Position numbers: made by a program | Shown: positions 24,001-30,000 of the stretch, piece after piece | How positions within the stretch are numbered: position 1 is the stretch's first letter | Layout: the number at the start of each line of letters is the position of its first letter | Source: Escherichia phage P13374 | DNA length: 60,894 bases | Strand: one strand, 5' to 3' | Sequence record: NC_018846.1

Positions 24001-27000
24001 GGGAGTTTACGATAGACTTTTCGACCCAACAAAGTTATGTCTCTTCGTTAAATAGTATACGGACAGAGATATCGACCCCTCTTGAACATATATCTCAGGG
24101 GACCACATCGGTGTCTGTTATTAACCACACCCCACCGGGCAGTTATTTTGCTGTGGATATACGAGGGCTTGATGTCTATCAGGCGCGTTTTGACCATCTT
24201 CGTCTGATTATTGAGCAAAATAATTTATATGTGGCCGGGTTCGTTAATACGGCAACAAATACTTTCTACCGTTTTTCAGATTTTACACATATATCAGTGC
24301 CCGGTGTGACAACGGTTTCCATGACAACGGACAGCAGTTATACCACTCTGCAACGTGTCGCAGCGCTGGAACGTTCCGGAATGCAAATCAGTCGTCACTC
24401 ACTGGTTTCATCATATCTGGCGTTAATGGAGTTCAGTGGTAATACAATGACCAGAGATGCATCCAGAGCAGTTCTGCGTTTTGTCACTGTCACAGCAGAA
24501 GCCTTACGCTTCAGGCAGATACAGAGAGAATTTCGTCAGGCACTGTCTGAAACTGCTCCTGTGTATACGATGACGCCGGGAGACGTGGACCTCACTCTGA
24601 ACTGGGGGCGAATCAGCAATGTGCTTCCGGAGTATCGGGGAGAGGATGGTGTCAGAGTGGGGAGAATATCCTTTAATAATATATCAGCGATACTGGGGAC
24701 TGTGGCCGTTATACTGAATTGCCATCATCAGGGGGCGCGTTCTGTTCGCGCCGTGAATGAAGAGAGTCAACCAGAATGTCAGATAACTGGCGACAGGCCC
24801 GTTATAAAAATAAACAATACATTATGGGAAAGTAATACAGCTGCAGCGTTTCTGAACAGAAAGTCACAGTTTTTATATACAACGGGTAAATAAAGGAGTT
24901 AAGCATGAAGAAGATGTTTATGGCGGTTTTATTTGCATTAGCTTCTGTTAATGCAATGGCGGCGGATTGTGCTAAAGGTAAAATTGAGTTTTCCAAGTAT
25001 AATGAGGATGACACATTTACAGTGAAGGTTGACGGGAAAGAATACTGGACCAGTCGCTGGAATCTGCAACCGTTACTGCAAAGTGCTCAGTTGACAGGAA
25101 TGACTGTCACAATCAAATCCAGTACCTGTGAATCAGGCTCCGGATTTGCTGAAGTGCAGTTTAATAATGACTGAGGCATAACCTGATTCGTGGTATGTGG
25201 GTAACAAGTGTAATCTGTGTCACAATTCAGTCAGTTGACAGTTGCCTGTCAGACTGAGCATTTGTTAAAAAAATTTCGCATGGTGAATCCCCCTGTGTGG
25301 AGGGGCGACTGGTGAAAAATCCTTGCTTGTGATTCATTATCGACACGGGTTCGGTGGTACCAGGCCGAACTCACCGGGAGGCACCCGGCACCATGCAGTA
25401 TACAGAGATTAGGCATATACCAAGGCCTCTCATAGCAGGGGCCTTTTTACATGTAAAAAAGCCCGAGTGGGTTCGGGCAATTGCATGAGATACTCGTTTT
25501 AATAATCGAAAGCATTTTAACCAGGATTCATAAGGCTGCGCAACTGCGCGGCCTTTTTCGTATTTCGGGCTGTAGTCTTCCTTCTGCCATTGTCCTGTAA
25601 CTTCCGGACTTCAGCCCGCTCCTCATCTGACTCACACATTATCCCGACCGGGAGGATTCATGGCATTTAAACACTATGACGTGGTCAGGGCGGCGTCGCC
25701 GTCAGACCTTGCGGAACGAATAACTCAAAAACTGAAGGAAGGGTGGCAGCCTTATGGTAGTGCGCTGATTTCGACAGCTGGTTATGGTGCGGAGTTCATC
25801 CAGCCAGTTGTGAGTGAGGGGAGCATCTCATCACCAGAGGAGCCAGGCAACCGTCCGACGACCTCAGCGCCTTCTGTTGCGCCAGAATATTACTATGTGA
25901 TCGCGCTTGCTGGTCAGTCCAATGGTATGTCATACGGTGAGGGACTGCCATTACCGGATACATTCGACAGTCCTGATCCACGAATTAAACAGTTAGCGCG
26001 TCGCAGTACGGTGACACCGGGAGGTGCCGCCTGTAAGTATAACGACATCATTCCGGCGGACCATTGTCTGCATGATGTGCAGGACATGAGCCGCCTTAAC
26101 CATCCGAAAGCGGACCTGTCAAAGGGGCAGTACGGAACCGTGGGGCAAGGGCTGCATATCGCCAAAAAATTGCTGCCGTTTATACCGGCGAATGCGGGCA
26201 TTCTGCTGGTTCCGTGCTGTCGTGGTGGTTCAGCGTTCACCACCGGAGCCGATGGCACATACAGTGACGCGAGTGGTGCCTCGGAGAATTCAACCCGCTG
26301 GGGTGTGGACAAGCCGCTGTATAAGGACCTTATCGGTCGAACAAAAGCAGCACTGAAGAAGAATCCGAAAAATGTGCTGTTTGCCGTGGTGTGGATGCAG
26401 GGGGAATTTGATTTTGGCGGTACGCCGGTAAATCACGCAGCACAGTTTGGTGCGCTGGTTGATAAATTCCGTGCAGACCTGGCGGATATGGCAGGTCAGT
26501 GCGTCGGTGGCTCTGCTGGCGGTGTTCCCTGGATATGCGGGGACACGACGTATTTCTGGAAGCAGAAGAACGAATCCACGTACCAGACGGTGTACGGCAG
26601 CTACAAAAACAAAACGGAAAAGAATATCCATTTCGTACCGTTCATGACGGATGAGAACGGGGTGAATGTGCCGACGAACAAACCGGAAGAAGACCCGGAC
26701 ATTCCGGGTATCGGATATTACGGTTCGAAATGGCGTGACAGCTCAGCCACCTGGACGTCACAGGACAGGGCGAGCCATTTCAGTTCATGGGCTCGCCGCG
26801 GGATTATTTCCGACCGTCTGGCAACGGCGATTTTGCGCCATGCGGGAAGAGTGGCGCTAAACGCGGGGGCATCATCGACAGTATCAGAGGTGCGCCCGTC
26901 ATCGCCTTCCGGTGCAGAAGCCACAGGCGTCACAACACTGCTCTCTTACCTTGCCAGCGAGTCAGAGGGAAGCCTGAAAGTACAGGGATGGTCAGCCAGT

Positions 27001-30000
27001 GGCGGCAGGGCAGAAGTGGTCAGCGATGCGGAGGGAACCGGAGGTAAGGCAGTGAAGCTGACCAAGGAAGCCGGTAAAAGCAGCTGGGTGCTGGAGTACG
27101 CCGCGGGCAACGGTGCGGCTCTGTTACAGAAAGGGGGGCAGATTCGCTGCCGCTTTAAGGTTTCGGGAGCGCTGGCTGCGAACCAGTATGTTATGGCGTT
27201 TTACTGGCCGGTATCTTCACTGCCACAGGGCGTTGCCCTGACCGGAGACGGGGGGAATAACCTGCTGGCAGCGTTCTACATCCAGACAGATGCAAAAGAC
27301 CTGAATGTGATGTACCACAATGCGAAAGTAGCGACAAACAACCTGAAACTGGGAACCTTTGGCGCATTTGATAACGAATGGCATATGCTGGCTTTCCGCT
27401 TTGCCGGGAATAACAGCCTTCAGGTGACGCCGGTTATTGATGGTCAGGATGGCACACCGTTCACGCTGACGCAGTCACCGGTCAGTGCATTTGCGGCGGA
27501 TAAACTGCATGTGACAGACATTACCAGGAATGCGACTTACCCGGTGCTGATTGACAGCATTGCGGTGGAAGTGAACAACGCGGATGCCGCGGCATGATAA
27601 AAAAAGCCGCCAGTTGCCTGAGACCTCTGGCGGTGTGAGATTCATGGAGAATCAAGGAAAGATACTACCACTTTCGTCATCGGCATTTTTAAATGAAAAC
27701 TGTTTACTTAGTCAACCATAACGGTAAGAAATTATGACATTTCTGAACCAGTTAATGCTGTACTTCTGTACGGTGGTCTGTGTGCTGTATCTCCTTTCGG
27801 GTGGGTACAGGGCCATGCGTGACTTCTGGCGCAGACAGATTGACAAAAGGGCCGCTGAGAAAATCAGCGCCAGTCAGTCAGCCGGAAGCAAACCCGAAGA
27901 GCCGCTCATTTAGCGGCAACTTTCTTAATCACATCTTTCGACGAGAAAATCCCATGTCAGAAATTACATCCCTGGTCACTGCTGAAGCAGTGAAGGAAGT
28001 CCTGCGCTCTGAAGAAGTCCGGAGCGCACTGAAACAGAAACTTCGCCATAACCTGGAAGCGCGTCTTGATGCAGAAGTGGATGCCATTCTGGATGAACTG
28101 CTGGGCGCACCGGCAGCTCCGGAGCCGGAAGGCATCGCGGGTGAGGGGAGTGCTTCAGATAGCGGTGACCCCACACCGGACAGCGACATGATGATGTAAG
28201 CATGCGTCAGGGACCATCGGTGTGTGCCGGTGGTCTTTTTTATTGTTGTGAGCTTCCGGATTGCGGGAGGCGGGGTATGAACCAGATGGAAAAAATCACA
28301 ACAGGTGTGTCATACACCACGTCAGCGGTGGGAACGGGCTACTGGTTCCTGCAGTTGCTGGACAGGGTTTCCCCGTCTCAGTGGGCGGCAATAGGCGTGC
28401 TGGGGAGTCTGCTGTTTGGTCTGCTGACGTACCTGACGAACCTGTATTTCAAAATCAGAGAGGACAGGCGTAAGGCGGCACGGGGAGAGTAAGCTGATGA
28501 GCAGGAAACTCCGCTATGGTTTATCGGCTGCCGTTCTGGCGCTGATTGCCGCAGGTGCTTCTGCGCCTGAAATCCTCGACCAGTTTCTGGATGAAAAGGA
28601 AGGCAACCACACCACGGCATACCGTGATGGTGTGGGTATCTGGACCATCTGCCGTGGTGCCACCCAGGTGGATGGTAAGCTTGTCGTCCCCGGCATGAAG
28701 TTGTCGAAGGAAAAATGCGACCAGGTTAACGCCATTGAACGTGATAAGGCGCTGGCATGGGTGGCGAAAAACATCAGAGTGCCACTGACCGAACCTCAGA
28801 AAGCGGGGATCGCGTCATTCTGTCCTTACAACATTGGCCCCGGTAAGTGTTTCCCGTCGACGTTTTATAAACGAATTAATGCAGGCGATCGCAGGGGAGC
28901 GTGTGAAGCGATTCGCTGGTGGATTAAGGACGGTGGCAGAGACTGCCGTATCCGCTCAAATAATTGCTACGGTCAGGTATCCCGTCGCGACCAGGAGAGT
29001 GCGCTGGCATGCTGGGGTATCGACAGGTAGCAGAATATTTTGCTGAAAAATGACGTTTGCTCACGCGGACGGATAACACGAAATCCTGCGAACTGGCAAA
29101 ATGCAAGTGAATAAAGTCAGGAAGATTGTTTCACGCTGAGGCACCGTAATGGTGTCTTTGTCATTTCTGCGCTTCGCACAAGCGTAAATAAACCAAAGAA
29201 CCTTTCAGGATGAGCCCTGGTGGATAACCGGCAGTGGTCTGGTTAACCCTCTTTGGGCTGGTTATTCCTGTGCGCAGGGTTCATCACTAAAAGGAAATAA
29301 CCGATGAATATGATGACCGTGCCGTTTCACGGCGATTCTCTTTATGTGGTTAACCATAACGGTGAGCCATACGTTCCCATGAAACCTGTCGTTGCGGGGA
29401 TGGGGCTGGCCTGGCAATCACAGTTGGCTAAGTTAAGACAGCGTTTTGCGTCAACTATAACGGAAATCGTTATGGTTGCTGAGGATGGGAAACGACGCAA
29501 TATGGTGTCCCTGCCACTTCGAAAACTTGCAGGCTGGTTACAAACCATCAATCCCAACAAAGTAAAACCCGAAATCCGCGACAAGGTAATCCAGTATCAG
29601 GAAGAGTGCGACGATGTTCTCTATGAATACTGGACGAAGGGGGGTGTCGTTAATCCCCGTCGAATGAGTGTGATGGAAGAACTCAATCAGGCCTGCGCTG
29701 ACATGAAACGGGATAAAAACATTGCCAGTGTGTTTGCTACCGGGCTGAATGAGTGGAAACAGGTTAAAGCCGCGCATGTATCAAAAATCCGCACATTGAT
29801 AAACGAAGCGAATCTGCTGATTGATTTTGTCCTGGCTGATACAGGCAAAGGGAAAATAACAAAGGCGGATTGATGGAGTGGTGGCTAATGATATCGGATA
29901 AACTCATAACGCTGGCGAAGGGCCTTTGTGTAATCGTCGGTATTTCATTTTCACTAATGCTGGTTGTTCTTTTTCTTTCCATAAACTGGATGGCGTTGAC

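Follow-up and report, generated by a model that had tools for sequence, protein, structure and literature searches.

NanS-p proteins are phage-encoded relatives of the chromosomal sialate O-acetylesterase NanS of Escherichia coli. The NanS-p enzyme of phage 933W (z1466), like other NanS-p alleles, is reported to be an active esterase that enables growth on 5-N-acetyl-9-O-acetylneuraminic acid (Neu5,9Ac2) and de-O-acetylates mucin glycans (PMC8065619, PMC10462455). Removal of the 9-O-acetyl group from Neu5,9Ac2 or from mucin O-glycans leaves sialic acid that E. coli can use, as reported for orthologues 99% identical to the protein analyzed here (PMC8065619). NanS-p is encoded beside the toxin genes in every phage carrying the Shiga toxin genes stx2a (Stx2a phage) surveyed in the literature. 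Here, the nanS-p gene of Escherichia phage P13374 was analyzed in sequence record NC_018846.1, and the whole stretch of 60,894 nucleotides is referred to as the window. The gene is very probably the nanS-p of an O104:H4-type Stx2a-converting podovirus of the 933W/phi24B group and encodes a three-domain sialate O-acetylesterase belonging to the late operon.

Identification of the nanS-p Gene

The original prediction, made from the sequence alone, was a large esterase-like gene of 645 amino acids (aa) at 25660-27597. The open reading frame (ORF) listing agrees with it exactly in coordinates, strand and length: the nanS-p coding sequence (25660..27597, plus strand) starts with ATG and encodes 645 aa followed by a stop codon. 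A Shine-Dalgarno motif, GGAGG (25651..25655, plus strand), was read 4 nt upstream of the ATG.

The assignment to the NanS-like 9-O-acetyl sialate esterases carried at this position by Stx2 phages also holds, with 99% identity to NanS-p of 933W and phi24B and with both expected domains found. Over all 645 aa, 638 residues are identical to the phi24B protein (vb_24B_21, gp84) and to the 933W protein (ST933Wp42, also z1466 or L0105). The seven substitutions relative to these proteins lie at positions 19, 124, 576, 624, 640, 641, and 643; the catalytic blocks and the aromatic residues of the binding site are unaffected. Both reference proteins have the same length and the same three domains. Their genes occupy the same slot, between stx2B and the DUF1378/DUF826 genes with the S-R lysis genes, and the stx2B/nanS-p intergenic regions hold the same small RNAs (sRNAs) and hairpins. 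Thus, on all criteria tested, the P13374 protein belongs to the NanS-p family, and its close identity makes it the counterpart of phi24B gp84.

At the DNA level, nanS-p is 100% identical to its copies in the Stx2a phages P13363, P13803, and phiON-2011 (about 60.9 kb, from O104:H4 and O2:H27 strains) and in the prophage of O104:H4 strain C227-11. The combination of substitutions agrees with that of the O104/O2 allele catalogued as sequence 12, with the domains D2-SASA3-CTR1 (PMC10462455). The identification is therefore correct but already known, the allele being the published O104/O2 variant, with nothing new for the P13374 gene.

Domain Organization and Functional Residues

The three-domain architecture of NanS-p, comprising DUF1737, SASA, and an additional C-terminal domain, was found in the P13374 protein, with all parts encoded on the plus strand. 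The N-terminal DUF1737 domain (aa 1-54; 25660..25821), the capsid anchor in phi24B, was recognized by Pfam (PF08410, aa 3-53, E 3.5e-18) and includes Tyr42, encoded at 25783-25785. Linker 1 (aa 55-71; 25822..25872) carries the motif SISSP (aa 55-59), a proposed processing site (bioRxiv 10.64898/2026.04.10.717836). This linker has low values of pLDDT (the predicted local distance difference test) and lacks similarity among the sequence variants A, B, and C described below.

The esterase domain of SGNH type II (SASA; aa 72-393; 25873..26838) was delimited by alignment with the E. coli NanS/YjhS structure (3pt5; aa 72-393, E 8e-118) in a search of solved structures. It contains a Pfam SASA match (PF03629; aa 152-276, E 4.8e-10, 39.9 bits against a cutoff of 24.8) that is partial, aligning model positions 55-158 of 226. 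Linker 2 (aa 394-422; 26839..26925), located by motif mapping, contains a second SSP motif (aa 414-416) and is 100% conserved across every full-length copy compared. Autoproteolysis at this motif has been described as freeing the C-terminal domain (bioRxiv 10.64898/2026.04.10.717836, citing Franke 2020). The C-terminal lectin-like jelly-roll domain (aa 423-645; 26926..27594) is a putative carbohydrate-binding module. It matches the solved NanS-p C-terminal domain 6yp6_A (aa 423-640, E 4e-139) and Pfam DUF6645 (aa 489-607, E 1e-73).

The whole protein matches PHROG 143 end to end (1169.6 bits), and the ORF is clearly not a product of chance; an NCBIfam search with the whole protein gave no match. 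The hidden Markov model search proposed together with the original prediction detected both SASA and DUF1737 in the 645-aa protein, and the SGNH/SASA domain, the absence of which would have told against an esterase, is therefore present.

Motif mapping against the reference NanS sequence blocks (PMC10792757) located block I as GQSN at residues 85-88, with the nucleophile Ser87 (codon 25918-25920) and Gln86 of the oxyanion hole. Block II is RGGSAF (188-193) and block III is MQGEFD (246-251), the two blocks that carry oxyanion residues in this family, and block V is RASHFS (370-375), with His373 as the base (codon 26776-26778). In NanS, the corresponding residues are Ser19, His301, and Gln18 (PMC9063846). 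The catalytic set is thus complete in P13374, with Ser87, His373, and a Gln86/Gly oxyanion hole, and it lacks a catalytic Asp, as in NanS. All four aromatic residues proposed to form the carbohydrate-binding site (PMC10462455), namely Tyr510, Tyr515, Tyr540, and Phe611, were found. No N-terminal hydrophobic signal sequence was seen in a direct reading of the protein sequence.

Judged by sequence, the catalytic core is homologous to chromosomal NanS (YjhS, 3pt5). The GQSN, RGGSAF, MQGEFD, and R-x-SHFS blocks are identical in both proteins, and both have a Ser/His pair without a catalytic Asp. In contrast to NanS-p, chromosomal NanS is a single-domain protein having neither the DUF1737 domain nor the lectin-like C-terminal domain. 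The two genes also differ in their regulatory setting, that of NanS being the host sialic-acid regulon and that of NanS-p the phage late operon.

Many nanS-p copies elsewhere are truncated or interrupted, and the P13374 gene could in principle be one more inactive or degraded paralogue among the numerous copies in the genomes of STEC (E. coli strains that produce Shiga toxin). In phage phi191 (4501-6436 of its locus, L001), nanS-p is frameshifted and annotated as two coding sequences; in LC727847 (25759-27693 of L005), a premature stop follows codon 268; in phage 2B8 (44094-46071 of L004), the gene is split and carries the annotation 'mobile element protein'. Insertions of insertion sequence (IS) elements in nanS-p have also been reported (PMC10462455). 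That the P13374 copy is of this kind is highly improbable. It is full length and has a strong ribosome-binding site, the four SGNH blocks, the aromatic residues of the carbohydrate-binding module, and both SSP motifs intact, and it differs from the 933W NanS-p, reported as active (PMC8065619), by just seven non-catalytic residues.

The stx2B/nanS-p Region and Transcription of nanS-p

The antiterminator gene Q (Pfam Phage_antitermQ, E 2.9e-51; ending at 23151) is followed by stx2A (319 aa; 23934..24893, plus strand) and stx2B (89 aa; 24905..25174, plus strand). Downstream of nanS-p, small DUF1378 and DUF826 genes precede the lysis genes, which include a P21-type holin (28277..28492) and a lysozyme (28497..29030). 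The order Q, stx2AB, nanS-p, and then holin is that of the known NanS-p location.

The gene had been described as lying directly downstream of stx2. This is accurate in that nanS-p is the next protein-coding gene after stx2B. The two are nevertheless separated by a spacer of 485 bp that holds two sRNA genes and two hairpins. The first sRNA gene belongs to the STnc100 family (25249..25454, plus strand; Rfam RF02076, 207.7 bits against a gathering threshold of 47, full length). The second encodes the anti-sRNA AsxR (25456..25508, minus strand; Rfam RF02703, 88.1 bits against 63). It is convergent with STnc100 and lies 282 bp downstream of the stx2B stop codon, a distance that agrees with the published one (PMC4104026).

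STnc100 has its own terminator hairpin with a T-run (about 25422-25445, plus strand; -13.5 kcal/mol). A stronger terminator-like hairpin followed by a T-run (25532..25555, plus strand; -18.3 kcal/mol) is located 104 bp upstream of the nanS-p ATG, and none of 200 shuffled sequences was as stable (z -5.6). Both hairpins are conserved in 933W and phi24B. Comparable hairpin/T-run elements were found at 23197-23216 (after the late promoter pR'), 23856-23875 (before stx2A), and 28209-28238 (before the holin gene). A reading of the locus confined to proteins misses the two regulatory RNA genes that separate nanS-p from stx2.

A pR'-like late promoter was found by scanning at 23139-23166 (plus strand), where its position matches the annotated pR'/qut/terminator regions of 933W and phi24B. 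The tR' hairpin was found by the same approach (23197-23216, plus strand). Together, the two elements mark the start of the Q-dependent late transcript, which extends to stx2AB and nanS-p. In lysogens, pR' is constitutively active but its transcripts end at tR' directly downstream (PMC7547250). On the plus strand between 25175 and 25659, no sigma-70-like promoter was found in a simple consensus scan, which is a weak negative; the same scan found no terminator directly after the nanS-p stop codon.

Published expression data are available for related alleles. The amount of nanS-p mRNA rises by 1-2.4 logs with mitomycin C (PMC10462455), and z1466 belongs to the group of genes with the strongest norfloxacin induction (PMC8065619). 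An RNA sequencing study of phiO104 lysogens (PMC6580645) mentions only the host nanS and gives no nanS-p expression.

Since two hairpins and two sRNA genes lie between stx2B and nanS-p, co-transcription of the two would require Q antitermination from pR'. Given the two intrinsic terminators and the lack of a detected promoter of its own, nanS-p is therefore expected to be made mainly by Q-antiterminated transcription from pR' in the induced sub-population of cells. We infer that nanS-p is co-expressed with stx2 only within this late transcript, i.e., upon prophage induction. The earlier statement that nanS-p is co-transcribed with the toxin thus stands for prophage induction, in agreement with the published induction data, and has to be limited by the two terminators and the sRNAs that intervene.

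As a separate observation, the pR'/tR' region (23139-23216) coincides with the position where the sRNA StxS arises by early termination in lysogens (PMC7547250); an Rfam search of this region gave no family.

NanS-p as a Probable Virion Component

A role of NanS-p in the phage particle was reported in a cryo-electron microscopy preprint on phi24B from 2026, which is not peer-reviewed (bioRxiv 10.64898/2026.04.10.717836). According to this preprint, purified phi24B virions give gp84 as one of their strongest bands, with an apparent mass of about 70 kDa in fresh preparations and about 35 kDa in stored ones. The DUF1737 domain (residues 2-57) is hexameric and is inserted, via a Tyr42 'tooth', into the hexon at the center of each face of the T=9 capsid. 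The density ends at Gly54, adjoining SISSP, and a second SSP is located in the linker before the C-terminal domain. The full-length protein is present on fresh virions and is later cleaved at the SSP-containing linkers.

All of these landmarks were found in P13374. NanS-p keeps Tyr42, Gly54, SISSP (55-59), and SSP (414-416), and 59 of the first 60 residues are identical to those of phi24B, with Glu19 in place of Lys19 as the sole change. An AlphaFold2 model of aa 1-75 contains a strand (5-11), a helix (14-26), and two further strands (36-41 and 43-52), and its confidence collapses past approximately residue 54, consistent with the ordered limit given in the preprint. The major capsid protein (MCP; 404 aa; 37335..38549, plus strand; Pfam Phage_capsid_3, E 1.5e-88), the docking partner of DUF1737 in phi24B, is identical to phi24B vb_24B_29 at all 404 positions. 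The capsid cementing protein (CCP; 129 aa; 38605..38994, plus strand), assigned by identity to the phi24B protein (129 of 129) and having His19 as its anchor, is equally conserved. The residues named in the preprint, MCP Ala37-Pro56 and Val230 and CCP (gp67) His19, fit the P13374 ORFs. With the anchor shared and the capsid proteins identical, capsid decoration, if right for phi24B, should therefore hold for P13374, and NanS-p is probably a virion component of this phage.

Two groups of described systems resemble such a particle-displayed protein only by analogy. T4 Hoc and T5 pb10 occupy hexon centers at the outer surface of HK97-fold capsids, with outward modules that possibly bind mucus glycans, and the phi24B protein, as described in the preprint, is alike. 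Unlike Hoc and pb10, it is a hexamer restricted to the hexon in the middle of each face; it bears an enzyme and undergoes proteolytic processing, and its gene stands next to those for toxin and lysis, outside the head module.

The hemagglutinin-esterases (HEs) of influenza C virus and betacoronaviruses combine, as does NanS-p, an SGNH-fold sialate O-acetylesterase with a lectin, and this fold is shared by HEs and NanS (PMC9063846). HEs are displayed on the virion, as NanS-p would be if the phi24B data transfer. They differ in that their lectin is inserted inside the esterase, while the lectin-like domain of NanS-p is C-terminal, and in that they serve to enter sialylated host cells and to be released from them, while the known receptor of the phage is not a sialoglycan. 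In addition, the phi24B esterase is apparently cleaved off the capsid, unlike HEs.

Decoration of the phi24B capsid, the combination of esterase and lectin-like domain in one protein, and a late expression that suits a structural protein would also agree with an enzyme that mainly serves the phage, with lysogen nutrition as a side effect. Like receptor-destroying or receptor-exposing enzymes, the capsid-borne esterase and lectin would aid binding to or crossing of mucus, or would de-O-acetylate bacterial surface glycans for adsorption or release. De-O-acetylation of lipopolysaccharide has been raised as a possibility in a review (PMC8065619), and the O104 O-antigen contains an internal sialic acid (PMC9631793). 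Nevertheless, this explanation is unlikely. The catalytic and lectin domains are unseen on the capsid, for which the preprint proposes cleavage, the literature reports neither an adsorption nor a mucus phenotype, and broken alleles are common. The same enzyme is also found in phages of O157 strains. The O157 O-antigen is not known to contain sialic acid, which likewise counts against a role at the bacterial surface. The sialic acid of O104 may be O-acetylated. As a candidate O-acetylated substrate, the O104 O-antigen was half supported: internal N-acetylneuraminic acid (Neu5Ac) is confirmed, and O-acetylation was not found in the available part of the source (PMC9631793).

Generality of the DUF1737 Anchor

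The anchor sequences were compared with the head types of eight phage or prophage records. Across phage records, the N-terminal domain falls into two identity classes, at least 80% and below 80%. Residues 1-33 are conserved, and residues 34-71 (25762-25872 of the window) form a hypervariable cassette that occurs in three variants without detectable similarity to one another. The cassette comprises the Tyr42 loop and linker 1, and the esterase domain, linker 2, and C-terminal domain can remain 96-100% identical between proteins having different cassettes. In every variant, a Tyr aligns with Tyr42. Counts of variants by megablast with N-domain DNA were blurred, the first 33 or so codons being common to all variants.

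Variant A was found with the phi24B-type head. Variant B accompanies a fused protease-capsid gene of HK97 type in LC727889 and LC744184, and in phage 2B8 it accompanies a lambda-type head (gpE/gpD). Variant C was found in AP005153, the MCP and CCP of which are 100% identical to those of P13374. LC727847, considered as a counterexample, was set aside as a degraded prophage without head genes and with a nonsense codon in nanS-p.

When the 60-aa N-terminal domain was used in a homologue search, all matches were short fragments from E. coli and Shigella. The fold of the N-domain model has no significant counterpart among the solved structures of the PDB, the best match, at E 0.37, being a weak dodecin-like similarity. 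DUF1737 was found outside NanS-p in several arrangements. Tandem arrays of 3-10 copies are present in proteins of 795-1274 aa (P0138, P0155, and P0158), and BFVD matches place the fold in jumbo phage PaBG and in the T4-like Vibrio phage nt-1.

Several points weigh against the reading of NanS-p as an active, Q-dependent, capsid-anchored esterase. Virion decoration is known from the single phi24B preprint, in which only the 57-residue N-terminal domain is in density. The tracking of head type by anchor variant was rejected as proof of anchoring, as variants B and C break the pairing. Two distant stand-alone DUF1737 genes, in Burkholderia phage BCSR129 and in an uncultivated viral contig (L032), have no head module nearby, and the fold also occurs in the giant viruses Yasminevirus, Harvfovirus, and Terrestrivirus, the capsids of which are unrelated (BFVD matches). 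The missing nanS-p promoter comes from a simple consensus scan. Finally, the esterase activity of the P13374 allele is predicted from orthologues, the evidence for this exact allele being its sequence.

Because tandem arrays exist and the fold occurs in giant viruses and other phages, the domain is not specific to phi24B-type capsids. A general capsid role would predict anchor variants that follow the head type and DUF1737 genes located in head modules. The three tests of generality (anchor variant against head type, genomic context, and distribution of the fold) neither confirm nor refute the phi24B finding, and they speak against using DUF1737 to recognize phi24B-like capsids. In the L032 contig, the stand-alone DUF1737 gene (5845-8225) directly follows the genes for a GDP-mannose 4,6-dehydratase and an NAD-dependent epimerase, a setting that would connect DUF1737 there with sugar metabolism and not with head genes.

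Distribution, Mosaicism, and the Moron Label

Of 5,426 complete E. coli genomes, 1,303 contain DNA related to nanS-p, at a median of 4 and a maximum of 15 places per positive genome. Among 80 related viral loci (L011-L090), the slot between Q and the holin gene holds nanS-p in 76. In the same loci, variants of the N-terminal domain, esterase, and C-terminal domain combine freely into a three-way mosaic. The esterase variants are approximately 99% or 71% identical, and at least five types of the C-terminal domain were found, with identities of 97, 70, 52, 39, and 33%.

This exchange of parts would allow a tentative and rather improbable extension of the HE analogy, namely that NanS-p is a modular particle-displayed enzyme composed of a DUF1737 anchor, an esterase, and a lectin, with an exchangeable cassette at aa 34-71 and a swappable lectin. 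If this were true, attachment of the enzyme to a given capsid, its firmness, and its duration would all depend on the cassette, and independent swaps of the C-terminal lectin would retarget it to different glycans. For phages of O104 hosts, these could include the sialic-acid-containing O-antigen.

The gene had also been called a second host-interaction moron in addition to the toxin. The location agrees with this, being the pR'-proximal site of moron insertion, i.e., the classical moron site downstream of pR' (PMC4104026); dispensability is hinted at only by the naturally broken alleles. The other features of a moron were not found. Neither a promoter nor a terminator of its own was detected for nanS-p (for the promoter a weak negative of the consensus scan), and its expression increases upon induction. 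Its base composition (GC 0.553; GC3, the GC content at third codon positions, 0.587) is not distinct and matches that of the neighboring late genes, with values of 0.549 and 0.596 for R and 0.518 and 0.573 for the MCP gene. The toxin genes stx2A (GC 0.451) and stx2B (GC 0.415) are distinct from both the late genes and nanS-p. Additionally, the phi24B orthologue is reported to be structural. The moron label is therefore doubtful.

In its strictest form, a moron would be a pure lysogenic-conversion gene: dispensable, serving the host with sialic acid as a carbon source, and having no role in the virion or the phage life cycle. The classical slot is joined here by the growth phenotypes on Neu5,9Ac2 reported for NanS-p alleles (PMC8065619), the multiple copies per genome, the occurrence of nanS-p in phages of three unrelated head types, and the persistence of prophages in which the gene is broken, as in phi191, LC727847, 2B8, and the alleles with IS insertions (PMC10462455). 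Set against these are the full-length gp84 among the strongest bands of fresh phi24B virions, with DUF1737 resolved on the capsid, and the same anchor and capsid proteins in P13374. The late-gene base composition, different from that of stx2, the absence of a detected promoter, and an expression that follows induction point the same way. A pure conversion gene is thus rather unlikely. A Q-dependent late gene encoding a probable virion component, and not an independently expressed add-on, is the description that fits P13374 nanS-p better.

Proposed Role of NanS-p

For this Q-dependent late gene, the following sequence of events may be proposed. After induction, Q-modified RNA polymerase starting from pR' would read through the tRNA genes, stx2AB, the sRNA region, nanS-p, and the lysis and head genes. 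Part of the NanS-p produced would bind new capsids via DUF1737, as proposed in the one preprint on phi24B. Because the protein has no N-terminal hydrophobic signal sequence, it would leave the cell by phage lysis, which would free both the particles and free NanS-p enzyme. Outside the cell, NanS-p would thus be partly capsid-bound and partly free, combining a shared benefit with a virion-displayed enzyme aimed at mucus.

According to the literature on orthologues, sialic acids, whether free or bound to mucin, would lose their 9-O-acetyl groups through the action of the SGNH domain. The C-terminal domain probably directs the enzyme to glycans. Slow cleavage of the SSP linkers would release the enzyme from the capsid. 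Surviving lysogens and neighboring cells may then gain usable Neu5Ac as a shared benefit; a growth benefit has been described for orthologues (PMC8065619). In this way, NanS-p would connect the induction of the phage with the consumption of O-acetylated sialic acids of gut mucin, which is relevant to colonization by STEC.

Other Features of the Locus

Three tRNA genes (23592-23843) are located between Q and stx2A. The first of them (23592-23667, anticodon CAT) was called tRNA-Met by ARAGORN, and the gene at the same position in 933W is annotated as ileZ (tRNA-Ile). It is followed by genes for tRNA-Arg (TCG) and tRNA-Arg (TCT), both upstream of stx2A.

An ORF of 189 aa (29304-29873, plus strand) lies between the endolysin gene and an Rz-like gene. 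It is the positional counterpart of the 'anti-repressor Ant' of 933W, phi24B, and phi191, position alone having been compared. A gene at this place is an unusual insertion within the lysis cassette.

At the end of the window, an ORF of 2806 aa (51952-60372, plus strand) is the counterpart of the giant protein of phi24B, given as 2811 aa in the preprint and proposed there to be an ejection protein packaged in the capsid (bioRxiv 10.64898/2026.04.10.717836).

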